A stretch of DNA of 57,863 nt from a virus (Duplodnaviria; Caudoviricetes), in IMG/VR virus record IMGVR_UViG_3300037191_001144, positions 1 through 57,863 of that record; one strand, given 5' to 3'. Under the pieces are notes generated by a model. The model saw only the letters and a list, made by a program, of their open reading frames with translations. It ran no database searches and had not been told where the DNA came from. A program made the translations under genes and the position numbers. Below, in pieces: positions 12,469-39,600 of the stretch (the stretch's first letter is position 1; each line of letters starts with the position of its first letter).

Positions 12469-13704
12469 TTAATATAACACAGTAATTGTTCCATTGAACT
12501 CGAACACGCCTGCGTTCATAGAGCTGTGAGCTGTTATAGTATATACGTACACTCCTGCCGCAACGTTTGCGTCCCACTCGTCTAAGTTAGAGGCACTAAT
12601 CCAAACAACCTCCCCCCATCTATTGTATATACGGGTTTCCCATTGATCCCAACAAGCGCCGTCCGCAAACACACCCCATGTATCATTCCACCCATCATCG
12701 TTTGGGGTTACAACATTTGGGGCAAAGATGGAAGTCTCACTACAAGGGAAGTCTTGGTTGCAAGTTTCCCCCGTTTCACAATCTATATATATAGACTCAG
12801 CAACAAACTCGGTTATCGTGTCTGTATTGTAGACGTATATATTCTCATACACTACCGTCTCGACGTACATAGTATCGGTTAAATAAATGTACTGAAGCTC
12901 TATTACCTGTACAGTATCTGGCGGTAATTGGACATATTCTATTAACGTGTCCACTTCATACATATACTCTACTATCTCGACAGTGTCTAACAGAACAACG
13001 GTGTCCCCAGGTAGATATATATAATCCGTTAACCAAAGAGTGTCCGTAGTTACCCACTCAACATCTACGTATTCTATTATAGTATCAGTAAGATATTCAA
13101 CAACATCTACATACACGGTGTCACACGCAGGAAGAGCACAGTTGAGGGCTAAATTGTTGGAAAGATCTACGTCAGGATAGTTCTGAGTCTGAGCCGCAAC
13201 GTTAGGGTTTACGGCCCAACCTCCTATAGATGTGGTAGAGGTTTGTGATAAGTTAATCTGCCATACAACGACCTCAGTGCATAGCGTATCGTTGGATAGC
13301 ATATCAGCCCAACAGTCGTTAGTAGAGCTATTATAATCATACACATTAGCACTCCACGTGTCACCACTTTCTAGTACCTGATTCCCAAATAGGGTAAACA
13401 CCTTAAACGTCCAGCCTGGGTGATTGACTCCAGTTAAGCAATCCATCCAATTGTAATCTAAGCCAGGAGAGTGCAGCCCTAAAACTATATGTGATACTGT
13501 TGTGTTGTTCGCAACATGAGGGCTCCCGCTAGCCTCACAAGAGCTCCCTTCAACGGTAAACTCATTACACCCACAGTTCTCACTGTTGAGAGCCTCGATA
13601 ACTATATCCCCAGTAATAGCATCCCAACTGCTTATACCCACATCGCACTGAGAGAAAAGTGCGCTAGAAAAAAGAGAAAAGAAAAGAAAGAGTTTTATCC
13701 TCAT
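12469..13704 (-). CDS. Secreted protein with T9SS type-B (gliding motility-associated, CHU_C) C-terminal sorting domain
   Basis: Sec signal peptide; DT(V/I/L)-rich repeats; C-terminal IFAPNVVTPNDDGWNDTW...IYNRWGEVV...WD...GVYVYTI...GTITVLY. Confidence 0.8.
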   Translation of the reverse strand: MRIKLFLFFSLFSSALFSQCDVGISSWDAITGDIVIEALNSENCGCNEFTVEGSSCEASGSPHVANNTTVSHIVLGLHSPGLDYNWMDCLTGVNHPGWTFKVFTLFGNQVLESGDTWSANVYDYNSSTNDCWADMLSNDTLCTEVVVWQINLSQTSTTSIGGWAVNPNVAAQTQNYPDVDLSNNLALNCALPACDTVYVDVVEYLTDTIIEYVDVEWVTTDTLWLTDYIYLPGDTVVLLDTVEIVEYMYEVDTLIEYVQLPPDTVQVIELQYIYLTDTMYVETVVYENIYVYNTDTITEFVAESIYIDCETGETCNQDFPCSETSIFAPNVVTPNDDGWNDTWGVFADGACWDQWETRIYNRWGEVVWISASNLDEWDANVAAGVYVYTITAHSSMNAGVFEFNGTITVLY

Positions 13705-16190
13705 GGCGTATCATCTGTTATAATCCACCCCCTACTTATCATAGCGTTCCTTGAGGTGAGGCCTCCTTTTGCAGCTATCGCCAAAGCAAAGTCCGCAGAC
13801 ATATTAGAGGTGTTAGCCGCGTTCCACGTTGCAAGAATCTGATTGTACTCCCCTCCAGTAAGGGTGTTTACCGTGCTAGTTAAAATTCCACTTAGAGCTC
13901 CTGTTCCCGTAGCCTGAGTAATATCCCAGTACCTCATACTAGCATATACAGAAGATGGTAAAACCGTAGTGGATAAGAAAAAATCGCTCAAGTCTGTTGC
14001 ACTAGAAGTATCTAACGACCCAGAAGCAGGCCACGTTACACTCGTTAGATAATAGCACTCACCGAAAAACCACTTCATATCCGTAACGTTGGAGGTATTC
14101 CAATTAGACAAGTCAATAGAGGTGATCTCTGATCTATAGAACATAGATTGCATATCTGTAACATCATCAACGTCCCAGTTGGTAACATCTATAGTAGCTA
14201 TTTTTAATCCGATAAACGTAGATCTGCACAGTAATAAAGAAGAGGTGTTCCAATTCGAAACATCTAAGACGCTTAACGTACCAACATTACCTACATACTG
14301 AAACGTTTGTCGCATATCCGTTACATTTGAAACATTCCAACTTGAGACATCTAACAGGGAGAGATCATAACAATTTTGAAAGGTTCTAAGCAGACTAGTA
14401 ACGAGACCCGTATTCCAATTAGATACATTCAAGGAGATAAGGTCTCCACAGGAAGCAAACGAATCTATCATGCTCGTTACGCTCGACACGTCCCATCCCG
14501 AGACATCTATAGTAGTTAACACACTACAGGATTGAAAGACGTAATCCATACCTACTAAAGAGGAGGTGTTCCAGTTTGTAGCCCCCGTAGCTCCGAGAGA
14601 GGTAAGGGAGGTGCAGTTTCTAAACATACGGGTGATATCGGTTACATTAGTCATAACCCAAGAAGAAACATCTATAGTAGTAAGAGAATTGCAATCATTA
14701 AACGCGGCTGACGTGTCAAGCATACTCGTGGAGACACCCCAAGTAGATACGTCTAATACAGTCAAGTCATAACACTGAGAAAACATAGAATCTATAGTAG
14801 TACAGCTAGACATATCCCAACCCGAGACGTCTAACGTAGTAAGAGAATTACAACCATTAAACATTAGATCTGCCAACCCTAAAAGAGGAGTACTCCAAAG
14901 GGCCGTGTCTATAGTAGTAAGAGAAGTACAATTATAAAACATTGAACCAACATCAGTTACTGTAGACATATCCCATCCCGCAACATCGGCACTCACCAAG
15001 TTTGCACAACTTGAAAAAGCTTCATGAGCATCTTCTAGGCTGTCTGTTTGCCACAGAGAACAAGGGGCCGTAGTTATAGTAGTACACGATCTGACAAAAC
15101 CATCTAAAGAAATTACCTCACGCACGTCCCATGCCTCCACCTTTAGGCTTGTCAAAACGGTACAGTACCCAAACATATTACCAACATCAATTACTGTAGA
15201 CATATCCCAAAGGGCCGTATCTATTTCTGTTAACTGTTCACAACTCTGGAATAGAGACCTCATTCTTTTTACCCCACTAACATCCCAGTCAGATACGTCT
15301 AGAGTTGTAAAGGAAGAACAGTTCTTAAAGAGACTGCTTAAATTTTTATTAACAACAGGATTTGTAAAGCGCCACCCACTCACATCTATATTCCCTAAAC
15401 TTACGCAGCCGTTAAAGCAGGACTCCATATTAATCATGCTGCTCAGAGTCCAGTTAGACACATCTATAGACGTGAGGCCAGAGTTACTGAACATAAATCC
15501 TGCAGCACTCAAATTAGAGACGTCCCAAGCAGAGGCGTCCACGGTAGTGAGGCTAGAGCAGGTACGGAAAGCGCTGACCATGGTGGTTACTATACTCATA
15601 TCCCAGTCGGAGGTATCTATAGTAGACAAAGAAGTACAACTGGAGAAGGTAGAGTTCATGGTGGTTACTATACTCATATCCCAGTCGGAGGTATTTATAG
15701 TAGACAAAGAAGTACAATTGTAGAAGGCAGAGTTCATATTTGTCGATTCCTGAGTTAACGTATCTGTAGCGGTACAATCTAAGTTTGTACACCCCTGGAA
15801 CCAACCCGAAGCAAACCCTGTAGTAAAGGTCCCCCAGTTAGAGACGTTGAGTATCTTTAGCTTATCCCCTGTATTACTAAAGGCCCAGACCTTAATAACT
15901 CCAAATATTGTTATATCGTACTGACCCGCCGCATCATACGTATGCTTCGCCTGAGAAGCAGACGTAATAGTTTCTGAAGTACCATCCCCCCAAGTGACAA
16001 CAAAGTCGTATGTACCATAAGATTTTAGAGGAAGGGTAATATTATCCGCAGCCGAGCTGCCAGTAGAAACATTAGAAGTCTCCCAAGTAGAGCGGAATCC
16101 CTGAGGTCCGTCTCCGCCGCCTCCAGGGTCGCCCCCGCCGCCACTAGTTGTCCCTGAATCTATCGCTATACGTGTTGCTATTCCGAGCAT
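13701..16190 (-). CDS. BspA-like/DUF285 26-residue repeat surface or receptor-binding protein
   Basis: Many W(D/N)(V/T/M)SxVTxMxxMFxxCxxLxxxD repeats after a PKD-like VTWGDG domain. Confidence 0.82.
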   Translation of the reverse strand: MLGIATRIAIDSGTTSGGGGDPGGGGDGPQGFRSTWETSNVSTGSSAADNITLPLKSYGTYDFVVTWGDGTSETITSASQAKHTYDAAGQYDITIFGVIKVWAFSNTGDKLKILNVSNWGTFTTGFASGWFQGCTNLDCTATDTLTQESTNMNSAFYNCTSLSTINTSDWDMSIVTTMNSTFSSCTSLSTIDTSDWDMSIVTTMVSAFRTCSSLTTVDASAWDVSNLSAAGFMFSNSGLTSIDVSNWTLSSMINMESCFNGCVSLGNIDVSGWRFTNPVVNKNLSSLFKNCSSFTTLDVSDWDVSGVKRMRSLFQSCEQLTEIDTALWDMSTVIDVGNMFGYCTVLTSLKVEAWDVREVISLDGFVRSCTTITTAPCSLWQTDSLEDAHEAFSSCANLVSADVAGWDMSTVTDVGSMFYNCTSLTTIDTALWSTPLLGLADLMFNGCNSLTTLDVSGWDMSSCTTIDSMFSQCYDLTVLDVSTWGVSTSMLDTSAAFNDCNSLTTIDVSSWVMTNVTDITRMFRNCTSLTSLGATGATNWNTSSLVGMDYVFQSCSVLTTIDVSGWDVSSVTSMIDSFASCGDLISLNVSNWNTGLVTSLLRTFQNCYDLSLLDVSSWNVSNVTDMRQTFQYVGNVGTLSVLDVSNWNTSSLLLCRSTFIGLKIATIDVTNWDVDDVTDMQSMFYRSEITSIDLSNWNTSNVTDMKWFFGECYYLTSVTWPASGSLDTSSATDLSDFFLSTTVLPSSVYASMRYWDITQATGTGALSGILTSTVNTLTGGEYNQILATWNAANTSNMSADFALAIAAKGGLTSRNAMISRGWIITDDTP
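15579..15737. repeat. Near-perfect 78-bp tandem duplication (one 26-aa repeat)
   Basis: CATGGTGGTTACTATACTCATATCCCAGTCGGAGGTAT... starts at 15579 and at 15657. Confidence 0.9.
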
Positions 16191-17061: not shown

Positions 17062-17287
17062 TTATAGTATATGACTCGTTATGAATAAGCATAGAGTGTC
17101 CCGCATGTCTGTCGTAGTATATGCTGTCCTTGGACTTTATTTCCTGGACCCCATCGCCTGTCTGGACTACCTCTCCTTTTTTATACCTAAAAGAATTGGC
17201 GTCCTCGTTAGAAAGGATAAGTCCTGACTTAGTCTTTATCTCCTCCTCGATAGCTTTAATTAAAATATATTTTCCTACTGGCTTCAT
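17030..17287 (-). CDS. groES: Co-chaperonin GroES
   Basis: MKPVGKYILI...TKSGLIL...GEVVQTG...ITERDVVVVL; coupled to groEL. Confidence 0.88.
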   Translation of the reverse strand: MKPVGKYILIKAIEEEIKTKSGLILSNEDANSFRYKKGEVVQTGDGVQEIKSKDSIYYDRHAGHSMLIHNESYTIITERDVVVVL

Positions 17288-18870
17288 GCTCGTGCGTGTG
17301 TTACAATTGCGTTAGTACTTAAGATAGTAGTCGCTACACTCACCGCGTTGCGGAGGGCGTGCTTAGTTACTTTCAATGGATCTATAATCCCCATCTCGTA
17401 CATATCCCCAGCACACTCGTTCTTGACGTCGTACCCCCAGCTATCGTTCTTCGCGTTATGGAGAAGGGACGAAGGCTTGCCCGCGTTCTCTAAGATCTGT
17501 ACCGCAGGAGCCGAGAGAGTATGTTGTAGGATAGCGGTAGCCGCATCCTTATTCTTCCCACTGATAGGTGAATCCCCTAAGGCCATGCCCTCGTTATATA
17601 ACGCGAGGCCCCCACCTGGAAGGATACCCTCCTGAAGGGCCGAGCGCACCGCGCAGACCGCATCGTCCACCCTGTCGAACTTCTCCTTCTGCTCTATGTC
17701 CGAGACTCCCCCAACATATATACACCCTATACCGCCAGCTAAACTCGCTATACGGGAGTTGATAAAGTCACGCTCCCCCTTGTTCTTAGTACTAGACTGC
17801 TGCTCCTTGAGCTGCTCGATCCGAGTAGAGATCTCATCCGTGACCTGGTTGCTCTTGATAAGTACCGCACTCTCCTTCCCCACTATAGCCTTGTCCGCGT
17901 GACCGAGGTCCCCAAGGTTTATAAGGGAGAGATCGTCTCCCGTCTTCTCACTGAAATATTTTGCACCTACCGCAAGGGCGATGTCTTGCATGAGCTCATG
18001 CTGGCGGAACCCAAAACTCGGCGGGGGGACAGCACACAGCTGTAACCCATTACGCGCAACGTTGGCCGCTAAAGTGTTCACTACGTTCCCACTACACGGA
18101 GCAATAAGCAGAAGCTTCAGCCCTCCCTTGATAATAGGCTCGAGCACCGTCTGGATCTGGAGTACGTTGTTAACCTCGTGGTCACACACCAGAACACGCA
18201 CATCCTCTAAGACACACTCATCCTTCTTGTGGTTGTTGATGAAAAGATTGGACGAGTACCCACGGTCCATGCGGATACCCGTCGTGACCTCAGCATACGT
18301 CTTGTCCGTTTGGGAACGCTCGACAGTAACAATACCGTCTGACCCGACCTCGTTATATGCAGAGGCTATAATCTTCCCTAGCTCCTTGTCATTATTGGCA
18401 GAGATAGTAGCAACGTCTAAAAGACGAGACTTAGTAATCTTCTTGGACTTCTTCTCTAGACGAGCAATCACCTGCTCACTAAGGTCCTGGATAAATCGAA
18501 TCACCTCCGTCTTGTTATGATCAGGAGAGATGTACTTCATCCCAGCCTTGACTAACGCCTCCGTTAATACGATCGCCGTAGTAGTCCCGTCCCCCGCTAC
18601 ACTAGCAGTCTTCTCCGAGGCCTGCTTCATCATGCGAACCGCTAAGTTCTCTACCGCGTCGTTGAGGTCTATACTCCGAGCTACAGTGACGCCGTCCTTT
18701 GTGACAGTCATACCCTGTAAATGGTCCGTAGACTCTATAAGAACAGTCTGGCCACGAGGACCTAACGTACTCTTCACTGCCTTGGATAGCGTAGTGATAC
18801 CGTTAATAAGTTTTGTGCGGGCCTCGTCGTCGAAGCACAGTTCCTTTGGGATGTATCCTAACTCACTCAT
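17284..18870 (-). CDS. groEL: Chaperonin GroEL
   Basis: AVKSTLGPRG, VTKDGVTVA, AGDGTTTA, GILPGGG, GIIDPLKV. Confidence 0.97.
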   Translation of the reverse strand: MSELGYIPKELCFDDEARTKLINGITTLSKAVKSTLGPRGQTVLIESTDHLQGMTVTKDGVTVARSIDLNDAVENLAVRMMKQASEKTASVAGDGTTTAIVLTEALVKAGMKYISPDHNKTEVIRFIQDLSEQVIARLEKKSKKITKSRLLDVATISANNDKELGKIIASAYNEVGSDGIVTVERSQTDKTYAEVTTGIRMDRGYSSNLFINNHKKDECVLEDVRVLVCDHEVNNVLQIQTVLEPIIKGGLKLLLIAPCSGNVVNTLAANVARNGLQLCAVPPPSFGFRQHELMQDIALAVGAKYFSEKTGDDLSLINLGDLGHADKAIVGKESAVLIKSNQVTDEISTRIEQLKEQQSSTKNKGERDFINSRIASLAGGIGCIYVGGVSDIEQKEKFDRVDDAVCAVRSALQEGILPGGGLALYNEGMALGDSPISGKNKDAATAILQHTLSAPAVQILENAGKPSSLLHNAKNDSWGYDVKNECAGDMYEMGIIDPLKVTKHALRNAVSVATTILSTNAIVTHARA

Positions 18871-18920: not shown

Positions 18921-19116
18921 ACTATGACAGAATGTCGAAAATAACTCCCCCTATATATATATATATAAAACTATTGTGGAGAGTGTAAAAAAAATCCTAC
19001 AAAAGTGGGAACAAATCGACATTTCGACATAATTTCCCTTAACTATCTTATTACTATATCTTTAGACTAAATAAAATCGACATAAAAACGACATAGAAAT
19101 GACAGTTATCGACATA
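18921..19116. repeat. Iteron-like element copy 1 (CGACAT repeats plus (AT)n tract), putative origin
   Basis: Five CGACAT plus one inverted copy and an (AT)n run; same layout as 30041-30226. Confidence 0.6.
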
Positions 19117-19121
19117 ATAAA

Positions 19122-19409
19122 CTAATATCCAGCCCTTCTTCCCCTTCTTGTTACCCTTAACTTAGTCTTAGTCTTGCCACTTCTTCTTACTTTGTCCTTC
19201 TGTTTGACTAATAAGTTTCCGTTAGAATCAAAAACCTTGAATACATTCTTAGTCTTAGACTTACCACCACGGTCAGTTTGAGAAGACTCGTTAACAGTAG
19301 TCTCCCCAGTAGATGTGTTCGTAACCTTATTAGTTTGGGTAACCTTCTTCCTCTTGCCCTTAATCGTGCTAGAAGAATTAGAGCTTACATCGTAGGACTT
19401 ACCGCTCAT
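19122..19409 (-). CDS. Basic S/T/K-rich hypothetical protein
   Basis: Start reassigned to MSGKS (ATGA overlap with upstream stop). Confidence 0.55.
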   Translation of the reverse strand: MSGKSYDVSSNSSSTIKGKRKKVTQTNKVTNTSTGETTVNESSQTDRGGKSKTKNVFKVFDSNGNLLVKQKDKVRRSGKTKTKLRVTRRGRRAGY

Positions 19410-19537
19410 CCCGAACAAGACTCACAGTCCTCAGGAGACTCAGTGCTACATACAGTCTCCCCAGATAAGATCTTGTCGTCCTGCTCCTTTAACTTCTTCT
19501 GATCTAAGAACAGAGGAGCGTCCAGGTCCTTGATCAT
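19406..19537 (-). CDS. 43-aa peptide ending in a CxxC tail (not in ORF track)
   Basis: MIKDLDAPLFLDQKKLKEQDDKILSGETVCSTESPEDCESCSG; ATGA-coupled on both sides. Confidence 0.65.
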   Translation of the reverse strand: MIKDLDAPLFLDQKKLKEQDDKILSGETVCSTESPEDCESCSG

Positions 19538-19716
19538 AAAGGCTTACGCATCTCAGCTAACTGGATGCCCTCAGCAATGCACTCAACCTTGTACTGGTGC
19601 TTGCGGTTCTTACGGACACGAGCAGCCATAGCAATGCCCGTCTCTCCATCAGGTCTGTTGTTTATGAGGCGACCGTCTTGGACAGTCAAGCCTGGTGTGT
19701 AGTTCTTATGTATCAT
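19534..19716 (-). CDS. Hypothetical protein
   Basis: 60 aa; -7 box TATCTTTG (19721-19728) 4 nt before ATG. Confidence 0.65.
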   Translation of the reverse strand: MIHKNYTPGLTVQDGRLINNRPDGETGIAMAARVRKNRKHQYKVECIAEGIQLAEMRKPL

Positions 19717-20181
19717 GTAGCAAAGATAGTGAAAATTTTTTTACGAGATATCTGGAAGTTGAGGGTTCTAGGTGATGTGACAGGCTGTGTGCCTCATATG
19801 AAAGTCGATGTTGATTCCGATGGGGGTCTTCGGTTTCAGAATTTCTTGTGGATTGTTTCAGGATTCCGCATAGCCTCGCGCCCTCTGTCTATGGTCTCTG
19901 TCTGTGCGCCCTATGTACGCTACGTCTCACGCATCCCCGAGCATTAAGTGCAGTAGTAATGGTATAGGTCTCACGCCCCGTATCCCGCCCCCTGAAGGGG
20001 GTAAACAAGGGAGGAAGGTGTACACAACCTCTCCTTAACACCTCCCCGACCCCTCACCTCACAAAATACTTTCAGGTAAGACATCTCTCTGTATCCCCTA
20101 TCTATGCTCATTCTACGCACATTGAATAAACTATTTTCGAAAGTTTCTTGCACTCATAGCATCAATACCCATTCTGTGAAC

Positions 20182-20189
20182 TATATTTG
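20182..20189 (+). promoter_or_regulatory. Putative early promoter -7 element (TATATTTG)
   Basis: TAnnTTTG immediately upstream of the first + strand early gene; -33 element unclear. Confidence 0.55.
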
Positions 20190-20217
20190 CACAAACGTTA
20201 AACAAATCATATACACC

Positions 20218-20289
20218 ATGCCTATACTACTACTCATCACTACCATCTTCACAATAATCGCATTCATTATTTCATTCATCACAGATTAA
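20218..20289 (+). CDS. 23-aa membrane peptide
   Basis: MPILLLITTIFTIIAFIISFITD after an A/C-rich leader. Confidence 0.4.
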   Translation: MPILLLITTIFTIIAFIISFITD

Positions 20290-20300
20290 TACACAACACA

Positions 20301-20552
20301 ATGACTATAACTGCCCACAACAAGATGCACCAGAGCAATGTCAACAAGGCTACGCAATGGTTAGAGAAGCACAACACATTCAATGCAGAGCGAGACCTAA
20401 TCGAGGATAGCTTAGAAGGTTATCCTGACGAGGATACTGCTTGGAGACGCATCAACAAGAAGTGCGAGGATTCATACGACAAGTACTTGTGCTATATGGA
20501 TGAGCTACCAAAGCGTGAGCAAGACCAAATAACCAAATCAGAATTATACTGA
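20301..20552 (+). CDS. Early hypothetical protein
   Basis: 83 aa, AATACACAACACA-ATG leader. Confidence 0.7.
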   Translation: MTITAHNKMHQSNVNKATQWLEKHNTFNAERDLIEDSLEGYPDEDTAWRRINKKCEDSYDKYLCYMDELPKREQDQITKSELY

Positions 20553-20602
20553 GTAACACTGACGAGTCCTTACTGGACGAAACGTCGAGAGACGTCTGTT
20601 AC
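20553..20602 (+). ncRNA. Type I hammerhead ribozyme HH1 (cleaves after GUC, C20596)
   Basis: GUAACA-CUGACGA-GUCC(UUACU)GGAC-GAAA-CGUC(GAGA)GACG-UC-UGUUAC: full catalytic core and three stems. Confidence 0.93.
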
Positions 20603-20626
20603 ATTTATTCATCAATACACAACACC

Positions 20627-20875
20627 ATGAACAAATCCGAAGAACTAAACTACAAACTGCATCTAGACCGAATTGACGTGTGCTACAAGGTAGACGCAAA
20701 AGGAAGACCATATTACCAAGAACTTTTCCACGAGATGATATCTTGCATTATTGATGCGGAGCTATCAACTACTGAGGAGAACAGAGAGCTAAGGAAAGCG
20801 CTTAAGGTTGCTACTATTCAGATGAAAATTCAAGACCTTGAGAACGAACTTGACACCTTAACAATCACTGAGTAA
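20627..20875 (+). CDS. Early hypothetical protein flanked by HH1 and HH2
   Basis: 82 aa; stop TAA lies inside HH2 stem I. Confidence 0.7.
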   Translation: MNKSEELNYKLHLDRIDVCYKVDAKGRPYYQELFHEMISCIIDAELSTTEENRELRKALKVATIQMKIQDLENELDTLTITE

Positions 20876-20921
20876 CACTGACGAGACTTCAATAGTCGAA
20901 ACGCTGAGAAGCGTCTGTTAC
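20872..20921 (+). ncRNA. Type I hammerhead ribozyme HH2 (cleaves after GUC, C20915)
   Basis: GUAACA-CUGACGA-GACU(UCAAU)AGUC-GAAA-CGCU(GAGA)AGCG-UC-UGUUAC; stems II and III covary with HH1. Confidence 0.93.
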
Positions 20922-20948
20922 AAATTTTATTCACTAATACACAATACA

Positions 20949-21173
20949 ATGAACAATTTTAGAGTAGTAAGAACGAGAATGATTGACATCGATAATGTAC
21001 ACATAGACATACACTTTGGAAGTGATGACAAAATAGTCGCATCAGGTCAGTACAACATCCGTACCAATTGGGCACACGTTACTCGTGAGGAGGAGTATGA
21101 ACGTATGCTTGGCGATGATTGGGAGGACCAGATGCAAGAGGCCATCGAAGAGAGGACGATAGAGATAGGTTAA
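20949..21173 (+). CDS. Early hypothetical protein
   Basis: 74 aa after the conserved leader. Confidence 0.7.
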   Translation: MNNFRVVRTRMIDIDNVHIDIHFGSDDKIVASGQYNIRTNWAHVTREEEYERMLGDDWEDQMQEAIEERTIEIG

Positions 21174-21179
21174 CCAACA

Positions 21180-21226
21180 AGCGGAGTCAGTGCGTGACTC
21201 GAACGGATTCGCTCCCGTTCTCCGCT
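21180..21226 (+). ncRNA. 47-nt three-way-junction, tRNA-elbow-like RNA, copy B1
   Basis: AGCGGA-GUCA(GUGCG)UGAC-UC-GAACGG(AUUCGCUC)CCGUUC-UCCGCU; covaries with B2 and B3. Confidence 0.8.
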
Positions 21227-21255
21227 CTAATTATTATTCACTAATACCCAATACA

Positions 21256-21438
21256 ATGAACGATTTAATTACAATTCAAGGCTTACAAGATGCTCTCAAC
21301 CTTTCAATGAGAGAAGTGAAAGACCTAAGAGATAAGTTAGAGATTACGGAAAAGTATCTCCATAACTATGTTATCCAAGCAGAAAGGACCATAGACACCC
21401 TGATGAAGCCTTATAGCGAGGCAGTACAAACCAAGTAA
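21256..21438 (+). CDS. Early hypothetical coiled-coil protein
   Basis: Start reassigned to ATG 21256 after the conserved leader; stop inside HH3 stem I. Confidence 0.7.
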   Translation: MNDLITIQGLQDALNLSMREVKDLRDKLEITEKYLHNYVIQAERTIDTLMKPYSEAVQTK

Positions 21439-21484
21439 CACTGATGAGACCTGAATGGTCGAAACGTCGTGAGACGTATGTTAC
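21435..21484 (+). ncRNA. Type I hammerhead ribozyme HH3 (cleaves after GUA, A21478)
   Basis: GUAACA-CUGAUGA-GACC(UGAAU)GGUC-GAAA-CGUC(GUGA)GACG-UA-UGUUAC. Confidence 0.93.
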
Positions 21485-21510
21485 AAATTTTATTCACTAA
21501 TCTAATACCT

Positions 21511-21750
21511 ATGACATTACAAGACAAGATTGAACACACAACCGCGATAGCTGATGCTATCCAGCGCAGAGAGGACTACTACACCCTTGAGATTTTAATG
21601 GGTGAAAGCCACCCTTTAGGTTATAGTCCTCAGACATCAGAACTGAGACAAATCGAACTACCTGCACCACAGATTGCAGGTACGATGGTCCAGCGCAGAA
21701 GCTACGCGATGGGCAAAGCTATGGACATCCTTAACACCCTATCACTATGA
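21511..21750 (+). CDS. Early hypothetical protein
   Basis: Start reassigned to MTLQDK after the conserved leader. Confidence 0.65.
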   Translation: MTLQDKIEHTTAIADAIQRREDYYTLEILMGESHPLGYSPQTSELRQIELPAPQIAGTMVQRRSYAMGKAMDILNTLSL

Positions 21751-22022
21751 AAAAACTTTATAGTATACATAGAAAGTGTCACGCCATCTACGAAGAGTTT
21801 GGAGGATACGACTACAACGATAAGATGATTTATCAGCTACGCGGACTCGACGCTGACATCGAAGAGTGTAGCGAGTGTATGGAAGAGTTGTCCAGCCAAA
21901 GAGAAAGAGAGGTACTATACAAAGGGGCTCTTGCTAACGCAGACGCTACTCTCCTATGGTTTGAATGGGTGAAGAAGATGATGGTCCTTAAATCAAAAGA
22001 GCCATCTGCCATCTTTGGTTAG
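21747..22022 (+). CDS. Early hypothetical protein
   Basis: 91 aa, ATGA-coupled. Confidence 0.65.
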   Translation: MKKLYSIHRKCHAIYEEFGGYDYNDKMIYQLRGLDADIEECSECMEELSSQREREVLYKGALANADATLLWFEWVKKMMVLKSKEPSAIFG

Positions 22023-22029
22023 ACCTACA

Positions 22030-22076
22030 AGCGGAGGTAGTGCGTACCTCGAGATGATTCGCCTCGTCTCTCCGCT
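22030..22076 (+). ncRNA. 47-nt three-way-junction RNA, copy B2
   Basis: AGCGGA-GGUA(GUGCG)UACC-UC-GAGAUG(AUUCGCCU)CGUCUC-UCCGCU. Confidence 0.8.
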
Positions 22077-22105
22077 CTAATTATTATTCACTAATCTAAT
22101 ACAAT

Positions 22106-22261
22106 ATGAATTTAGGATACATAGAACACAGAAAGGGCAAGTACTCTGTCCTCGTAGACATTATAGATTTAGGGCCTTTCGGAATGTCGCCTTGCTTCAG
22201 CAAAGGCTTTGACACACGAACAGAGGCAGAAGAACACTCGAACAAATTAAATTTAAAATGA
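22106..22261 (+). CDS. 51-aa early protein (not in ORF track)
   Basis: MNLGYIEHRKGKYSV... directly after the conserved leader. Confidence 0.6.
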   Translation: MNLGYIEHRKGKYSVLVDIIDLGPFGMSPCFSKGFDTRTEAEEHSNKLNLK

Positions 22262-22410
22262 TGACTACACAAGAGAAATTCGAATACACAAGAGGTTTGG
22301 AGAAGCAAATCGAAAAGCAAGAAGCATTAATCGAACACCTTAGAAAGACCATACTTGCTTACTCAGAAAGAATGGAAACTATAACTAAAATCAAAAACCT
22401 ATTAAAATGA
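22258..22410 (+). CDS. 50-aa early protein (not in ORF track)
   Basis: MMTTQEKFEYTRG...; ATGA-coupled on both sides. Confidence 0.55.
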   Translation: MMTTQEKFEYTRGLEKQIEKQEALIEHLRKTILAYSERMETITKIKNLLK

Positions 22411-22646
22411 AATACAAATCAGTATACGCAGTACACCACCTAAGCCATCTACTTGGCGATTGTGAGACCGATCTATTTTTCTCAGAGGCTGACGCGAGAG
22501 CGTTCTTTCTTAAGCTAATGATGGAGGTCGAAGACTCTTCAGACGAGGTTGAGATACTAACCGACGAAGCAGATGAATTGTACTACTGCAATGAGTCTTC
22601 AGGAGAGTACATCAGAATCGTAATAGAACAAATTAAAATCAAATAA
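22407..22646 (+). CDS. Early acidic hypothetical protein
   Basis: 79 aa, ATGA-coupled. Confidence 0.65.
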   Translation: MKYKSVYAVHHLSHLLGDCETDLFFSEADARAFFLKLMMEVEDSSDEVEILTDEADELYYCNESSGEYIRIVIEQIKIK

Positions 22647-22652
22647 AACACA

Positions 22653-22740
22653 TACACGTAATCTGTGGTGGTTCGCAGATGGATTGTTACTCTTTACGCA
22701 TAGAGAATAGCAATGGGGTTCGACTCCCCTACGTGTACCA
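22653..22740 (+). ncRNA. 8/4 tRNA-like RNA C1, ending in CCA
   Basis: Acceptor UACACGUA/UACGUGUA, T arm GGGG(UUCGACU)CCCC, 7-bp D-like arm with GG loop, elongated anticodon-like arm. Confidence 0.7.
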
Positions 22741-22766
22741 ATTAATATTCACTAATACATAATACA

Positions 22767-23054
22767 ATGACAGATAATTTAGGACAATACACGCTCCGCG
22801 AAGTGGAGAAGTTATTTAAGAAGTTAGACCGAATGAATATCGCAGTCCAGAAGAACTACGGGTACGACTTCGAGCACGGAGACAGACCCGCTTTGTGGAT
22901 TTGGACCGAGGGCATTACGGAGGAGACAGAGATGCATATAGACTACTATGCCAATCACGGATGCCCGAGTGAGAAACTTGCTCAGGTCTTATATGACGCT
23001 GAGTCTTATGCTGAGTGGGATAACTCTGCGGTATGTTGTATTTACAAAGTTTAA
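22767..23054 (+). CDS. Early hypothetical protein
   Basis: 95 aa after the conserved leader. Confidence 0.7.
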   Translation: MTDNLGQYTLREVEKLFKKLDRMNIAVQKNYGYDFEHGDRPALWIWTEGITEETEMHIDYYANHGCPSEKLAQVLYDAESYAEWDNSAVCCIYKV

Positions 23055-23059
23055 TCAGT

Positions 23060-23275
23060 ATGGAAGAGAAATTTAGCGACTGCTGTGGAGTCTCCTCTAG
23101 CGAGGAGGATATCCTACGCGATACTTGTCCTGACTGCAAGGAACATTGCGAGTTTAATAACGTAGCACACACGTGCGTCAATTGTGGAGACACAGAAGTA
23201 GAGGTTGAGGGTCAACCTTGCTCAATAGAATGCCACCGAGAGTATTGGGGCGAAATGAACAGAGATGAAAGATAA
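23060..23275 (+). CDS. Small Cys-rich, zinc-finger-like protein
   Basis: SDCC, CPDCKEHC, CVNC, CSIEC; start reassigned to MEEKF. Confidence 0.65.
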   Translation: MEEKFSDCCGVSSSEEDILRDTCPDCKEHCEFNNVAHTCVNCGDTEVEVEGQPCSIECHREYWGEMNRDER

Positions 23276-23483
23276 CAATATGGAATTAATGGACAGAATA
23301 ATAGCCTATGAAGAGGGCAACATCGACGAAGCTGGTATCCTTCAGCTATTTGCGGAGTTAATCAAGTCAGGAATGGCTTGGTCTCTTCAGGGTCACTACG
23401 GCAGAACTGCGAAAGCCTTAATAGACGCAGAATACATAAGTGAGGATGGACAAACCATCTTCTACCAAGACATAGTACAATGA
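23265..23483 (+). CDS. Small phage protein (LIKSGMAWSLQGHYGRTA motif)
   Basis: 72 aa with a distinctive motif seen in many phages (recollection). Confidence 0.7.
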   Translation: MKDNNMELMDRIIAYEEGNIDEAGILQLFAELIKSGMAWSLQGHYGRTAKALIDAEYISEDGQTIFYQDIVQ

Positions 23484-23638
23484 ATCAAAATACAAGATCT
23501 TTCAGGTACTGCATAACGACCCTCGCAATATGGGCAGTAGCATTCTACCTTATCCTTTGCCTAGTCTCTTGCTCGGCAACCAAGTCAGCCAACGTATACG
23601 GCAATCCAAATACTGATAGGTGCGAGGCATATTACTAA
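23480..23638 (+). CDS. 52-aa putative lipoprotein (not in ORF track)
   Basis: Hydrophobic stretch followed by lipobox LVSC; ATGA-coupled. Confidence 0.55.
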   Translation: MNQNTRSFRYCITTLAIWAVAFYLILCLVSCSATKSANVYGNPNTDRCEAYY

Positions 23639-23645
23639 CCCAACA

Positions 23646-23692
23646 AGCAGTGGTAGTGCGTACCGAGAAGAGATTCGCCCCTCTTCACTGCT
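23646..23692 (+). ncRNA. 47-nt three-way-junction RNA, copy B3
   Basis: AGCAGU-GGUA(GUGCG)UACC-GA-GAAGAG(AUUCGCCC)CUCUUC-ACUGCU; compensatory changes in P1 and P3. Confidence 0.8.
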
Positions 23693-23782
23693 CAATTGTT
23701 AATAACTTTGATAATATAATTAGGAATTAGACAAAGTACGAACTATCTTTACACTATCTATAAACATTTAATCTAATACATT

Positions 23783-24007
23783 ATGATACAAGTAACAAGT
23801 AAACTATTCGGTAGCCTTGAGTTACCACTTACCTTAGCTGAGTTTAGCAAAGACCAAGACTCTTGGGGGGCATTGAGTAAGCACATAGTATACCACATAT
23901 ATACTGACGAAGCTATTCGAGTACTACTCTACGCAGTAAAAGATGGCGAGACAGACACAAGCCAAGAGTTAGAGATTATAACCGAAAGAAATATGATATT
24001 CAGATGA
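23783..24007 (+). CDS. Hypothetical protein
   Basis: 74 aa with AATCTAATACATT-ATG leader. Confidence 0.65.
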   Translation: MIQVTSKLFGSLELPLTLAEFSKDQDSWGALSKHIVYHIYTDEAIRVLLYAVKDGETDTSQELEIITERNMIFR

Positions 24008-24396: not shown

Positions 24397-24506
24397 TACA
24401 CGTAGCATTGTAGGTTTGCAAAAACTTCAGGATACAATGTAGGCGTTCCCTCAATAGGTTTTCTGAATTTCCTATACGGGTGCGAGGTTCGACTCCTCTA
24501 CGTGTA
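24397..24506 (+). ncRNA. 8/4 tRNA-like RNA C2 with enlarged interior
   Basis: Same acceptor as C1 (UACACGUA/UACGUGUA); T arm GAGG(UUCGACU)CCUC; internal stems GCAUUGUA/UACAAUGU and a GCAA tetraloop hairpin. Confidence 0.68.
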
Positions 24507-24821: not shown

Positions 24822-25016
24822 ATGAAGAAGAAAGAAGAATTTACTTTTGAAGTCGTCCTCAAGGACGCAATGGAAAACACTAAGTACTACCAAGATCGAT
24901 TGATACAGAACGAAGACGAAAAGATGGAGAGATACTATCAGTCTAAGTATATGGAGGCTCTGTATTATCAGAAAGGATTAGTCGTAGGCCAGAAACTACT
25001 AAGCAAAGAGTCATGA
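24822..25016 (+). CDS. Hypothetical protein
   Basis: 64-aa ORF in operon. Confidence 0.6.
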   Translation: MKKKEEFTFEVVLKDAMENTKYYQDRLIQNEDEKMERYYQSKYMEALYYQKGLVVGQKLLSKES

Positions 25017-25303
25017 ATGATAAAGACAACAAAATAATTGCCCTATTCATGGGGTTGAAACCCCACCATCAGGATGCGGGTTACCTAATAGACGAGAGCA
25101 AAGATGAAGGCTACGAAGCCATACACGAATCGTGTTTCTTATACGACTCGTCATGGGATTGGTTAGTCCCCGTAGTACAGAAGATTGAGGAAGAGTGCGG
25201 GGGTGTACCTAAGCAATTGCTTGACGTCAGTTTCTATGATGAGATAGGAGATGTATACCAAGCAGTAGTAGAATTTATTAAAACATACAACGATGAAAAA
25301 TAA
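25013..25303 (+). CDS. SWDWLxPV-family paralog 1
   Basis: NKIIALFMG...YDSSWDWLVPVVQKI...AVVEFIK. Confidence 0.75.
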   Translation: MNDKDNKIIALFMGLKPHHQDAGYLIDESKDEGYEAIHESCFLYDSSWDWLVPVVQKIEEECGGVPKQLLDVSFYDEIGDVYQAVVEFIKTYNDEK

Positions 25304-25502
25304 TAAACTAATAGGAGACTTTATGGACATCCGAAGTACGGGGTTGTCTGTATATAAAGAGAGCGCATACAAATACCACGAGTCATGGGATTGGTTGATG
25401 CCCGTAGTTGAGAGGATAGGTGATGAGAATCTTTTATCTATTGACATAGACGTAGCATACGATAGAGTAGTAGAATTTATTAAAGAATATAACAATGAAT
25501 AG
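25293..25502 (+). CDS. SWDWLxPV-family paralog 2
   Basis: NKLIGDFM...YHESWDWLMPVVERI...VVEFIK. Confidence 0.75.
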   Translation: MKNNKLIGDFMDIRSTGLSVYKESAYKYHESWDWLMPVVERIGDENLLSIDIDVAYDRVVEFIKEYNNE

Positions 25503-25788
25503 AGAAATATATAACATCATTTTAATACACACCGCACGGACGTGGGAAAGGATACGTATAACACGACCTCATCAGGAGATGCCATTCGATAACATAGGTT
25601 CAGCGGAGCAGATAGAAAACATCGCGTCTACCATATACAACGGCGACATCATACAAGGTTTTCTTAACGCGCCTGATGATCTATCTAAGGATAGATGGTG
25701 GATAGACAAAACAATAGATGGGATGTCCGATGTGTACATAGAGAATGAGGCAGAACGAATTATTAACAACGTATACCTACGACTATGA
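25495..25788 (+). CDS. Hypothetical protein
   Basis: 97 aa, overlapping operon organisation. Confidence 0.6.
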   Translation: MNREIYNIILIHTARTWERIRITRPHQEMPFDNIGSAEQIENIASTIYNGDIIQGFLNAPDDLSKDRWWIDKTIDGMSDVYIENEAERIINNVYLRL

Positions 25789-26009
25789 AAGATAAAATAT
25801 ACATAGACAACTCACGATTCATGGAGTTAATAGATGAGATTGTAACGCAGATAACTGAGGCTGAATTTAAGGAGCAAACAAGTAAGTTAGCTGAAAATGG
25901 AGACTGGGTGTTACAAGGAGAAGCACAAGACTTCTATAACGAGAAGTACAAGGAGTACGAAAACCTATTTAATAACATAGCAAATATACTTAGCGATGCA
26001 AGACAATAA
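25785..26009 (+). CDS. Hypothetical protein
   Basis: 74 aa, ATGA-coupled. Confidence 0.6.
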   Translation: MKDKIYIDNSRFMELIDEIVTQITEAEFKEQTSKLAENGDWVLQGEAQDFYNEKYKEYENLFNNIANILSDARQ

Positions 26010-26096
26010 TTTAAGATACTGCCACGTGTTTACGGCAAAACCTACATCCGTTAACCAGCGAGGTTTGGTGGTGGTATCTTTCAAACCAATAACATC

Positions 26097-26369
26097 ATGA
26101 AAGATAACAAACTAATAGCAGAATTTATGGGAGGCGAAAAACCTGAACGAACATCAGACCTTCGCCACTTTATAGAAGAACATCATAACTACCACGACTC
26201 TTGGGATTGGTTGATGCCCGTAATAGAGAAGATCGAAAATAACGGACTCGATCCACACGGAATGATTGACAACTCTTTAAGGAAGAACAATCAAAAGAGA
26301 TGGCGTTCAATCGAGGACACATATAACGTAGCAGTATACTTAATAAACATATACAACAATGAAAGATAA
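26097..26369 (+). CDS. SWDWLxPV-family paralog 3
   Basis: MKDNKLIAEFMG...YHDSWDWLMPVIEKI. Confidence 0.75.
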   Translation: MKDNKLIAEFMGGEKPERTSDLRHFIEEHHNYHDSWDWLMPVIEKIENNGLDPHGMIDNSLRKNNQKRWRSIEDTYNVAVYLINIYNNER

Positions 26370-26670
26370 CAAACTAATAGCAGAATTTATGGGGTACAAC
26401 TACGACAAGTGTATAGCGTCAACAGACAAGTCTACACCCCTCGATATGCAAGGCGAATACCTTACGCCTGATGGAGACTCGGTATCCGAGAGTGAATTAG
26501 AATTTCACGAGTCGTGGGACTGGCTCATGCCAGTACTTAAAAAGATTAAACTTCAGATACACCCCAACAACATGGGTATGTGGCGAAAGGTAACTCAACC
26601 TATAGGGTACGACATCCACGAGGTACACCAAGAAGCAGTAGAGTTTATCAAAAGATATAGCAATGAGTAG
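26359..26670 (+). CDS. SWDWLxPV-family paralog 4
   Basis: MKDNKLIAEFMG...FHESWDWLMPVLKKI; first 34 nt identical to paralog 3. Confidence 0.75.
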   Translation: MKDNKLIAEFMGYNYDKCIASTDKSTPLDMQGEYLTPDGDSVSESELEFHESWDWLMPVLKKIKLQIHPNNMGMWRKVTQPIGYDIHEVHQEAVEFIKRYSNE

Positions 26671-27532: not shown

Positions 27533-27617
27533 ATAGTAAGGCACGACTTGGAGGATGCTGGGTGTAGCGATTGTTGGTTCAGGAGTTACACACATGGGTT
27601 CGATTCCCACTTACTAT
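27533..27617 (+). ncRNA. 8/4 tRNA-like RNA C3
   Basis: Acceptor AUAGUAAG/CUUACUAU, T arm UGGG(UUCGAUU)CCCA, internal stem GUGUAGC/GUUACAC. Confidence 0.65.
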
Positions 27618-36674: not shown

Positions 36675-39600
36675 TCATTCTCTTATAGATTCTAAGTACT
36701 CTTCCCTTTGCTCGTCTTGATACGCCTTCTCCTCGGCTTCGTACTCCTCCTGTTCGGGGTCGTAGTATAGCTCCTCAAGGTATGCCTCTAACTCCTGCTC
36801 CTCTTTGTACTGTTCAGGGAAATACTCTTTCATCTCTTTCTTTGTGGTTTTCTTCTTCTTCTTTTTCTTCTTCTTTTCTTCAGGTCCATCTATAACGTAG
36901 TCGCTATACTGAAGGACTCGTAGCATAGCCTCCTTGGGTTCCATCCCCCCCTCGGTAAGCTTAGTGAAGTTGTTAAAGATCTTCTCTATATTTGAGGCTG
37001 GGATTCCAAACATAGCAAGGCCCTCGTTTATTGCTTTGCGTGTCCACTTCTCCTTAGTCTCAGGGGTCTTGGCCTTCGCTGCGTTATTCATATATAGGGC
37101 TACGTTCTTTGGCATATCCAGGGCAGGGATAGCTGGCATGTTAAATGCCCACGGCTTTCCTTGTATAGCGTCAGCTACCATACCTATAACATCCCCTGCT
37201 ATAAATAGGGAGTTGAAGTTACCAATTATCGCGGCTCTCATCATATCCTCCTCGTCCTCCTCGTCCCAGTCAGATCCAAGAGGGAACCCTAGGGATACCC
37301 ACTGGAAGAACATAGGCATAACAAAGTGGTAGGTGAGTATGGTTCTCGCATTACTAATCAACGTCCCCTTCCCCTCCTTACCGCCTGATCTAATAATTCT
37401 AGAAAGGTTTCTAAGAGACCTAAAGACTTTACGGTTGTATTGTTTTGGCGTAGTCATGAACATGTTAAGAACCCTCATGTACCCGTCACCCGTTTGATAA
37501 AGGTCTTTGTTCTGAATGTCTGATGACTGCTGTGTGTTCTTAGTGTCCTTCTCAAACCTGCGTATAGCATAGTCGATAGCCTGCTGCTCCGTAGCTCCAG
37601 GGTTATTCTTTTTAAACTGTGCCTTATGGTAAGAGTAGTTCGGCATACCCCCAATATATATCGCGGCCTTGTCCCCGAACTTAGTGGTCCACATAGCCAT
37701 ATTTATAAGAGCATTTTGAATGGGTTGAGGCATGAATTTCTGAACCCTCTCTGGAGCGTATGTCTCTATGGCCTTCATGATACTCTGGTAGTTACGGTCG
37801 TCCATGTATACTGAGTTAGCCTTGATCTCTTTAAAGATCTGTCTCATCTGTACTATATTAACAGCTGCGTACTTTACCCAGTTTGCGTATCCTATATCAC
37901 TTGCGTAGGTGAAGAACGAGGTAAGCTGCTTTATCATAACGACAGGGTTAAGTCCTAGGCGAGAGGTAATGAATGCGCTATTCATAAAGTTCACAAACCT
38001 TGCCCCCTTGTTTACCTTACCCTTGTTTGCTACACGCTCTATGCTAAGTCGAACCCCCTCTAGCACATCCGATCCGTATATTGCTTTAATAGTGGCGGCC
38101 ATCTTAGGGTTTAGGAGAAGCTTATTGATATAGTTAATAGGCTCTGCCATGCCCGCGAGGTGGTTCATCTCCTCTATGTAGAACATTAGGTTTGCCGTTC
38201 CGTCTACCCCTTCCTTGATAGGGTCTTTGGTCTGCACTCGATACTTCGAGGACCCTGCTGTTACTACAGTGTTGGACCCTTTGTTTGCCAGCAGGTCGAG
38301 GTCTTGTATTACCTGGCCATCATGCATCAAGGGTCCTGCATAGAACTCGTTCCATGGCATGTCTGTTTTGTATACCTTTAGGTACGCCTCATTAAAGATA
38401 GGGTATACCATAGGGAAGAACTCGTCCACCTGCCAGTCTGCAAATGCCTTTGTCTCTGGGTCTAGTGTGGATGTAAGTTCCCCCATGATACGTTCGTAAT
38501 CTTTCCCAAACCTAGACTCGAAAGAGGGGTGGTTAGATGGGTCCTTAAATTGATTGTATAGATAGTACGCCTCGCCCTGAGACATCGATATCTCCTGGTT
38601 TCTCTTAGCCTCTCTTAGGTCTACCTTATTCTCAGACGTAGGGTTGTCATCGTAGGTTTTCTGAGCCTTATCAACGGCAGCCTGGTCTATATATATTCCC
38701 GTCTTGTTAACGTTAGCTAATGCCCCTACCTTAAACTTCCACAACTTCCCCCACAACTCCTTCATCTTGCCCTCTACTGAGCGCTTCATCATAAGGTTAT
38801 TGGCCTTCTCTACTCGTGTCCCCTCGTCGATCCTGTCCACCACCTGCTGATCTGTGATGCCACCGAATATCTCTCCTGGGAGTTTAGATATTTTATTTAT
38901 CATCCCTCCCAGATCCTGCTGCTTAAAGAAGTAGTTCTTTACCATGTCGGTAAAGCTCCTTAGCACTCTTACTAATCTGTTTTGTGTTTCTTTTGCTCGG
39001 GCTCTGTTCTTCTTCGCTAATACTTTCAGGTCCACCGCATCGAAATTTATGTCCCCTTTCTCGTGGATAACTTTGCCATCGTCGTCTAGTACGTCCTCCT
39101 CGTATAGAGGGAGGTCCTCCCCTGTAATGTCCTTATGTATCTCCTTATAGCTCTCGTCAAACTCTGCCTTCTCCTTAGCTAAGGTCTCCTTAAGGTTGCT
39201 TCGTCCCCCGTCTACTAGTCCTTTTATAGCTGCGTATGCGCGGTCTAAAGCAATCGCCTTATTAGGGTCATTGTCCTCCATCAACATAGCATTATTGAGA
39301 TTAATAGCTGCGATCAATCCCTCCATCTGCTGCCTCTCTTCTGGGGTGGTCTCCATCTTGTTGGCTAATTCGTTGAACTCTTCCAGGAGCTGAACGTTTC
39401 TATCATTAACCTCCTTTGCGAGAACTGTCTTAGCAAACTTAATATTAGAGATCAAGTTCTTCACAACTCTTCGCGTTGTATTATCTATGCTTGTCCCCTT
39501 TAGTCTTCCGCTCTGCTTACTCTCATATGGCTTAAGGATTTTGCTTATAGCGCGAGAGAGTATCCCTACATTTTTCTTTGTAGAAAGCTGTATCACCTCA

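Follow-up and report, generated by a model that had tools for sequence, protein, structure and literature searches.

Three type I hammerhead ribozymes stand in tandem on the sense strand of a run of small genes in the virus record IMGVR_UViG_3300037191_001144 (Duplodnaviria, Caudoviricetes). In the reading that we consider probable, these hammerheads are maintained by selection and punctuate an early-gene operon as self-cleaving ribozymes. The window analyzed here is the whole of this IMG/VR record, 57,863 bases in length, with an estimated completeness of 94%. Judged by sequence, catalytic core, fold and covariation, the three elements are genuine type I hammerheads.

Sequence reading of positions 20400-21700 located the three hammerheads at 20553-20602, 20872-20921 and 21435-21484, all on the + strand and all within 932 base pairs (bp). 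Each unit is 50 nucleotides (nt) long and has the type I topology, with stem I open and stems II and III capped. Stem I is the same 6-bp helix, GUAACA/UGUUAC, in the three copies. The core segment from C3 to A9 reads CUGACGA in hammerheads 1 and 2 and CUGAUGA in hammerhead 3, stem II is closed in each by a G10.1-C11.1 pair, and a GAA (G12, A13 and A14) connects stems II and III in all three. The 4-bp stem II, with its loop of 5 nt, is GUCC/GGAC, GACU/AGUC and GACC/GGUC in hammerheads 1, 2 and 3, respectively. The 5-bp stem III is ACGUC/GACGU, ACGCU/AGCGU and ACGUC/GACGU in the same order, opened in each case by A15.1-U16.1 and capped by GAGA, GAGA and GUGA. Residue 17 is C, C and A, and never G, and the predicted cuts fall after C20596, C20915 and A21478, the last at a GUA site. 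The original prediction, made from the letters of this DNA, had described three intact type I hammerheads here, with NUH cleavage sites GUC, GUC and GUA, GNRA loops on stem III, one common 6-bp stem I and cleavage about 30 nt ahead of a start codon, and had named these same three cut positions. Each of these features was recovered in our reading, the cuts as predicted positions and the distance to the start codon as 30-33 nt. The pattern CTGANGA..GAAA..TGTTAC gave three matches against 0.02 expected, and none of 100 shuffles reached three. Exactly three hammerheads were found in the 57,863 bases, both by a structure-aware finder and by an unfiltered covariance model run on both strands; hammerhead 1 scored 78.7 bits with our own covariance model.

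A DNA search with positions 19000-24000 against 50,697 phage records returned no match, and the nearest relatives were therefore traced through sequence patterns and proteins. When IMG/VR was scanned with the pattern of stem I and core, 67 loci were obtained, 65 of which hold complete type I hammerheads (124 by the structure-aware finder, one to four per locus). A covariance model (R1) was built from the three window hammerheads and two close relatives; it matched 129 sites, 76 of them distinct, in 70 sources (viral contigs). Among these 76 distinct hammerheads, standard pairs fill 99.5% of 1064 cells, changes on both sides occur at 13 of the 15 pairs, and only G10.1-C11.1 and A15.1-U16.1 never vary (76/76). 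The covariation score was 0.478, compared to 0.128 in shuffles, and none of 500 shuffles attained the observed value. When the pairing partners were slid by one to three columns as a control, pairing fell to 25-45%; fitting the alignment to the model biases it towards the structure, but the margin over the slid controls is large. Stem I covaries in the relatives as well (GCAACA/UGUUGC, GUGACA/UGUCAC, GCUGGA/UUCAGC and others), and the stem differences among the three window hammerheads are all compensatory. This pattern of substitution indicates that the hammerhead fold is under selection, a claim already made for the window copies and now strengthened by the 76 distinct relatives.

The 3' strand of stem I shows a further feature in other phage lineages. 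An exact 5-nt complement to it is present within 22 nt downstream in 27 of 71 distinct hammerheads, compared to a mean of 1.6 and a maximum of 5 in shuffles. The complement sits 4-14 nt downstream, as in UGUUAC-AUAA-GUAAC (loci L004-L070), and it is predicted that the cut mRNA in those lineages can snap into a 5'-terminal hairpin. No such complement is found downstream of any of the three window hammerheads.

The window hammerheads are encoded in the same strand as the genes, and each starts within 0-3 nt of the stop codon that precedes it. The stop ahead of hammerhead 1 (TGA, 20550-20552) abuts stem I, and the stops ahead of hammerheads 2 and 3 (TAA, 20873-20875 and TAA, 21436-21438) are both inside it. 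A statistic on stop-codon proximity (71 of 71 hammerheads near a stop triplet) was discarded, since CUGA itself contains TGA. Each predicted cut is followed on the + strand by a short leader. Leader 1 (20597-20626, 30 nt) contains the motif TTATTCA(C/T)(T/C)AATA and an A-rich stretch and ends at ATG 20627; leader 2 (20916-20948, 33 nt) ends at ATG 20949; and leader 3 (21479-21510, 32 nt) ends at ATG 21511, the likely start of a protein that begins MTLQDKIEH. In the 71 distinct relatives with enough flanking sequence, the first ATG follows the cut at a median of 32.5 nt.

Five small open reading frames (ORFs) are interspersed with the elements on the + strand (20301-20552, 20627-20875, 20949-21173, 21256-21438 and 21511-21750), none of which was assigned to a Pfam or PHROG family. 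The run of small ORFs on this strand begins near 20200, and the hammerheads delimit the genes 20627-20875 and 20949-21438. Within blocks the ORFs overlap or abut, and between blocks stands one element, which may be a hammerhead, a three-way-junction RNA or a tRNA-like element, followed by a common leader. This layout fits the reading of the elements as RNA-processing sites. A 13-nt motif of the leader, TTATTCACTAATA, occurs six times in 20605-22757, once after each hammerhead and three times after other structures, two of which are the junction RNAs at 21180-21226 and 22030-22076, and the leader is thus common to hammerheads, junction RNAs and tRNA-like elements. Its 3' half, AATACACAAYACAATG, is also present before gene 20301, which has no element upstream, and the leader motif stops just some 10 nt short of the ATG. 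The hammerheads of other phage lineages are followed by a plain CA-rich spacer and a Shine-Dalgarno-like AAGGA or GGAG. No Shine-Dalgarno sequences were found in the window hammerhead leaders, a terminator scan called no intrinsic-terminator-like site at any element, and sigma-70-like sites were not enriched (17 compared to 22 expected). The motif listing gave a single TAnnTTTG box, TATATTTG (20182-20189, +), in the stretch that leads from the divergent intergenic region to hammerhead 1; TAnnTTTG is the Bacteroidota-type -7 consensus, and the box is a candidate promoter element of the operon. The divergent intergenic region itself (18940-19120 and 19720-20100) holds a (TA)n run and about six copies of CGACAT within 110 bp, and then a GC-richer stretch of about 400 bp without a convincing ORF.

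The intergenic slot before the common leader is filled in the window by a hammerhead three times, by a junction RNA three times and by a tRNA-like element three times. The counts of hammerheads and junction RNAs vary among related genomes: 3 and 3 in the window, 1 and 1 in G001, 2 and 1 in G003, 0 and 2 in G004, and 0 and 5 in G005. Gene 21511 has orthologues at 40-60% identity in 13 further viral loci. The element directly upstream is a hammerhead in 2 of the 14 loci (the window and G003) and a junction RNA in 4 (G001, G002, G005 and L309). At L309, 11 nt left over from the 5' side of a hammerhead, GTAACACTGAT, stand ahead of the junction RNA, and similar remnants adjoin the junction RNA in two metagenome copies. 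Gene 20949 follows a hammerhead in the window and in G001 (the two proteins are 67.6% identical) and a junction RNA in G005; the first 22 residues of the orthologues in G005 and G001 differ at 2 positions. A search of 100 metagenome loci revealed 25 hammerheads beside junction RNAs, and in every locus checked the two were on the same strand, a few hundred bases apart. Orthologous genes thus carry either RNA, and what matters would therefore be an RNA-processing event at that spot, and not the hammerhead as such. The swap before orthologous genes suggests that all of these elements mark cut sites in a long message, and their interchangeability therefore supports a role in mRNA punctuation.

Contigs of relatives, from DNA runs and from RNA libraries, join position 20603 directly to 20926, 21234 or 21489. 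Because these joins occur in DNA runs too, they represent genomic gain or loss of one to three cassettes, absent precisely from a hammerhead end up to the next shared leader, and not splicing. About one tenth of the sampled words occur in two RNA libraries.

From this arrangement we infer cleavage in vivo, a polycistronic precursor and an effect on mRNA decay or translation. The small + strand genes from about 20200 onward would be transcribed as long RNAs, in which each hammerhead would fold just past the stop of the gene before it and cleave itself following residue 17 (C or A). The whole ribozyme would remain on the upstream mRNA as a structured 3' end with a 2',3'-cyclic phosphate. The downstream mRNA would start with a 5'-hydroxyl (5'-OH) and UGUUAC and would continue through the fixed A/U-rich leader of about 30 nt to the ATG. 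The polycistronic transcript would in this manner be divided into mRNAs the size of a gene or a block, each with a standard 5' end and with its stability and translation freed from the influence of its neighbours. At the other boundaries, the junction RNA and the tRNA-like elements would probably do the same job. Protection of the downstream mRNA by the 5'-OH against 5'-monophosphate-dependent decay, as put forward in the original prediction, would depend on the RNases of the host and is plausible. The 5'-OH product of the glmS ribozyme is a preferred substrate of RNase J1 and is degraded in Bacillus subtilis.

Several points weigh against this scheme. All three window hammerheads score under the gathering cut-off of the Rfam model RF00163 Hammerhead_1, which is 34 bits. 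The search with Rfam hammerhead models by cmsearch, suggested along with the original prediction, gave nothing at the curated threshold: in E-value mode, copy 1 reached 31.0 bits (E 2.2e-5), copy 2 reached 27.6 bits (E 2.9e-4) and copy 3 reached 13.9 bits, and no Rfam match at gathering score was present anywhere in the window. The cut-off was reached by none of 33 related hammerheads either (15 loci, copies defined by our own model). The topology is the same as that of the Rfam model and the alignment spans all 45 model positions. The model, however, expects a very short stem III, whereas the stem III of the window copies has 5 bp and a tetraloop, and the sub-threshold scores are due to this difference. 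The failure is thus a property of the curated model and not of the hammerhead fold, and type I hammerheads of a large, coherent phage group escape standard Rfam annotation. In single-sequence folding, the minimum-free-energy structure is the hammerhead for copies 1 and 3 and differs from it for copy 2, with z-scores of -1.4, -1.3 and -2.6 for copies 1, 2 and 3. Thermodynamics alone is weak evidence, and it is the covariation that carries the hammerhead case. The low Rfam scores and weak z-scores would also suit chance look-alikes or inactive relics; we regard that explanation as very improbable, in view of the three matches against 0.02 expected and of the 76 distinct relatives with their nearly complete pairing and invariant core.

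Stem I has just 6 bp, and inspection by eye of the window copies and their nearest relatives revealed no consistent contact between stem I and loop II and no consistent pseudoknot. Loop II of copy 3 (UGAAU) complements AUUCA in its own leader and loop II of copy 2 shows 4 complementary bases, whereas copy 1 and the nearest relatives show none. Where stem I and loop II make no tertiary contact, hammerheads cleave slowly at physiological Mg2+. Because no consistent contact was identified, the activity that we predict for the window hammerheads is not assured at cellular Mg2+. The single long transcript is an assumption, and a phage-specific promoter could be hidden in the conserved leader. In 8 of the 14 loci of gene 21511, neither a hammerhead nor a junction RNA is present, and no more than a simple hairpin, or the last part of the ORF before it, lies upstream; the elements are therefore dispensable for this gene. 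The contigs of the RNA libraries come from relatives and break at repeats as the DNA contigs do, and they are uninformative on transcript starts and ends and on cutting.

The possibility of a promoter in the leader leads to an alternative that we judge unlikely, namely that the hammerheads chiefly form 3' ends. They would then serve as terminator substitutes or insulators between cassettes, each with its own promoter in the leader. Cutting would remove read-through, the upstream mRNA would keep a protective ribozyme fold and the cyclic phosphate, and the 5'-OH of the downstream RNA would be incidental. This would account for one conserved leader after hammerheads, junction RNAs and tRNA-like elements alike, and for the lack of canonical terminators called in the operon; all three element types, moreover, fold compactly and stably and would be left on the upstream fragment. 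Yet, the 3' half of the leader before the element-less gene 20301 fits a translation-initiation region better than a promoter, the motif lies only about 10 nt from the ATG, and in other lineages the place of the leader is taken by the CA-rich spacer with AAGGA or GGAG.

We give lower credence still to the view that each hammerhead with its leader is mainly a recombination module, in which conserved ends (TAAC... on the 5' side and TTATTCAC... on the 3' side) allow cassettes to be shuffled between phages and the uniform stem I results from gene conversion and not from a need of the RNA. The joins of 20603 to 20926, 21234 or 21489 fall at the exact boundary of element and leader, hammerhead remnants are fused to the junction RNA at L309 and in the two metagenome copies, and element counts vary among close relatives, all as shuffling would predict. 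Shuffling leaves unexplained, however, the perfect catalytic core and the purely compensatory changes in stems II and III, and it is compatible with processing, since a processing site may double as a recombination hotspot. Equally doubtful is that cleavage is regulated, with the terminating ribosome blocking the folding of the hammerhead, so that cutting would report on upstream translation or be timed in infection. The three upstream stop codons are positioned in or beside stem I, and a short stem I without a visible tertiary contact suggests a slow ribozyme open to modulation. The argument is purely positional, though, and both CUGA and GUAACA contain stop triplets by composition, so that nearness to a stop is in part to be expected. 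The punctuation of an early-gene message by self-cleavage thus remains the reading that we prefer.

Arrangements of this kind are known. Perreault et al. (2011, PMC3088659) reported that prophage hammerheads are often clustered on either side of single genes or of short blocks of genes, with examples in Clostridium scindens, Azorhizobium caulinodans and the ardA locus of Agrobacterium tumefaciens. In that study, three tandem prophage arrangements cleaved during in vitro transcription and the Agrobacterium ardA arrangement cleaved in cells, and the processing of long phage transcripts to mRNAs of gene length was proposed. Such clusters have at least two sense-strand copies around genes or short blocks; this is also the case in the window, and its portal, primase and virion protein identify it as phage. 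Like the prophage clusters as described there, the window has several sense-strand hammerheads within 1-2 kilobases (kb), with canonical cores and small phage genes on their flanks, and it invites the same hypothesis of transcript processing; a relative in phage phi18:3 lies about 900 bp from ardA. The window differs from those clusters in that every copy is of type I, with a 6-bp stem I common to all and a GNRA-capped stem III, in that the virus is a lytic-type podophage of marine Flavobacteriia, and in that the slots are shared with two other RNA folds. The alignment set of PMC3088659 may already list some of these metagenomic hammerheads. From the 2011 description it follows that the arrangement is not a new kind: the three tandem hammerheads in this phage early region are a new instance of it. 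Less ordinary is the context, in which hammerhead slots are shared with the junction RNA and the tRNA-like elements.

In haloviruses HF1 and HF2, according to PMC3088659, a hammerhead (HHphage) stands 13 nt before an early gene, and a mapped transcript 5' end falls within 3 nt of the cut. The likeness to the window is that of a predicted cut just before an early gene, with the coincidence of 5' end and cut already mapped there. HHphage is a single ribozyme with a variant core in an archaeal virus, 13 nt from the ATG, whereas the window has canonical cores, leaders of 30-33 nt and tandem use. A 2019 review (PMC6765202) and a 2026 paper (PMC13725137) still treat the role of bacterial and phage hammerheads as unresolved. 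In the library searched, no paper mentions hammerheads together with crAss-like phages, and among the papers listed for hammerheads and Cellulophaga or Flavobacterium phages none treats both. The synthetic ribozyme insulator RiboJ resembles the window elements in the placement of a hammerhead-type ribozyme ahead of the leader, by which the 5' end of the mRNA is constant whatever lies upstream. RiboJ is engineered, whereas the window elements are natural.

The junction RNA is a 47-nt element composed of a closing stem P1, a hairpin P2 with loop GUGCG, a 2-nt linker and a hairpin P3 with loop AUUCGCYY that abuts the 3' strand of P1. The window contains three copies on the + strand. In copy A (21180-21226), P1 is AGCGGA/UCCGCU, the P2 loop is GUGCG and the P3 loop is AUUCGCUC, and the same leader follows, before ATG 21256. 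Copy B (22030-22076) precedes ATG 22106, and copy C (23646-23692) has a covarying P1, AGCAGU/ACUGCU. Six distinct junction RNAs showed pairing in 97.9% of cells and changes on both sides at 8 of 16 pairs. Loose patterns for this RNA gave a list in which most matches were chance occurrences in GC-rich DNA, and only rows that close P1 were kept. A tighter pattern found 136 matches in metagenome loci, of which 82 close P1 and 44 are distinct (one of these being a GC-rich false match). The tight pattern together with a model found 92 copies, 57 of them distinct, in marine metagenome contigs of 100 loci, where this RNA is common; pairing holds in 98.0% of the cells of these 57, with changes on both sides at 11 of 16 pairs. 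The loops (A)GUGCG and GAUUCGC are nearly invariant in the pattern-searched set, where they were fixed by the search pattern, and this near-invariance is not independent evidence. In one lineage outside the pattern (two near-identical rows from one contig), loop 2 is GCGCA and loop 3 is AUUUGCAC. The two loops thus change jointly, from GUGCG to GCGCA and from AUUCGC to AUUUGC. The joint change would keep a pair while converting it from G-C to A-U, which hints at a kissing (loop-loop) interaction.

With lax filters, Rfam gave no match for copies A and B at E up to 10 or for copy C at E up to 5. Assignment to a known self-cleaving class (twister, twister-sister, pistol, hatchet, hepatitis delta virus (HDV)-like or hairpin) was rejected for lack of an Rfam match. 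An HDV-like, twister-like or tRNA-like identity was likewise rejected, with required strands or an Rfam match missing. The junction RNA may still be an intrinsic terminator, but the terminator scan did not call it as one. In other phage lineages, the 65 loci that bear hammerheads yielded no junction RNA. We consider it possible, though on balance rather unlikely, that the junction RNA is an undescribed small self-cleaving ribozyme class, or a dedicated RNase substrate, which evolution exchanges for the hammerhead at the same boundaries between genes. If so, this phage group would be a natural swap experiment, and the role of the phage hammerhead would be simply to cut the RNA at that point. 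The junction RNA, a candidate new class of functional RNA, is the part of these results most worth following up. One metagenome sub-lineage, with the 3' flank ctaatc..gagtctccctcgggagactc, has a second covarying hairpin after the junction RNA in place of the TTATTCAC leader, either GAGUCUCC..GGAGACUC or GAGUUCAC..GUGAACUC.

The tRNA-like elements are likewise on the + strand. The first (22653-22740) combines an acceptor-like stem of 8 bp with a GGUUCGACUCC T-arm and 3' ACCA, and is followed by the shared leader and ATG 22767. The second (24397-24506), with the same acceptor-like stem and T-arm and with long inner arms, lies before ATG 24530, and the third (27533-27617) has an 8-bp closing stem and a UGGGUUCGAUUCCCA T-arm. 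The T-arm GGUUCGAYUCC is common to all three, and none has a normal anticodon arm. ARAGORN called no tRNA gene in the window. The best Rfam match was to the tRNA-Sec model, for element 1 only, at 31.8 bits compared to a cut-off of 47. A canonical tRNA identity was rejected on these grounds. The elements are conserved in relatives (G001 and G005), where the T-stem shows one or more compensatory changes, and they probably use host tRNA-processing enzymes. Punctuation of mitochondrial transcripts by tRNAs and the processing of phage and operon RNAs by RNase P are well known. The window resembles these systems in having structured intergenic RNAs as putative cut marks in a polycistronic RNA, three of them tRNA-like; the difference is that these elements are not canonical tRNAs.

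We place the virus as a lytic-type podophage of marine Flavobacteriia with a genome of about 58 kb. Among its encoded features are a P22-like portal, a primase whose N-terminal domain is of the BT4734 type, a chaperonin, DUF285/BspA-repeat proteins, a CHU_C type IX secretion signal, a virion protein of 1592 residues and an ORF of 3707 residues. The portal shares 67% identity with an uncultured podovirus record and 47% with Elemovirus, a genus of Flavobacterium phages, with remoter matches in Maribacter, Cellulophaga and Tenacibaculum phages. Because of these portal relatives, the host is most likely a marine member of Flavobacteriia; the leaders without Shine-Dalgarno sequences fit this assignment. 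An N4-like or crAss-like label, suggested by the 3707-residue ORF and the BT4734-type primase domain, was considered but not adopted; the portal places the phage near Elemovirus and the Cellulophaga podophages.

Two cultured phages were found to carry unannotated hammerheads, whose core and stems were checked by eye. The copy in Flavobacterium phage vB_FspP_elemoA_7-9A (39.2 bits; NC_055852.1, 17290-17347, minus strand) sits between small minus-strand genes. A hypothetical coding sequence of 35 residues, gp68 (NC_055852.1, 17275-17382, +, locus L305), overlies this hammerhead on the opposite strand and is probably spurious. The copy in Cellulophaga phage phi18:3 (25.2 bits; NC_021794.1, 21904-21958, minus strand) is the one about 900 bp from the ardA gene. 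The hosts of the two phages are Flavobacterium sp. BAL314 and C. baltica #18, respectively. Our own model found no hammerhead at E up to 0.1 in MW202828.1, Maribacter phage Panino or Cellulophaga phage phi38:1. With at least two cultured phages that carry a copy, the question of role is open to bench work in marine systems.

Other features of the window were noted in passing. Four paralogous small ORFs at 25013-26670 (+) share an N-terminal ..NKLI(A/G)(E/D)FMG.. motif and are 33-47% identical; relatives have many more copies. The 3707-residue ORF (36675-47798, -) has as its sole match a weak PHROG of unknown function, and its size is reminiscent of the giant proteins packaged in virions, or the RNA polymerases, that N4-like and crAss-like phages possess. 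A Cpn60/GroEL-type chaperonin lies beside a DUF285/BspA leucine-rich-repeat protein of 829 residues and a CHU_C protein of 411 residues (17284-18870, - and 12469-16190, -); the DUF285/BspA and CHU_C type IX features are host-like surface-protein features.

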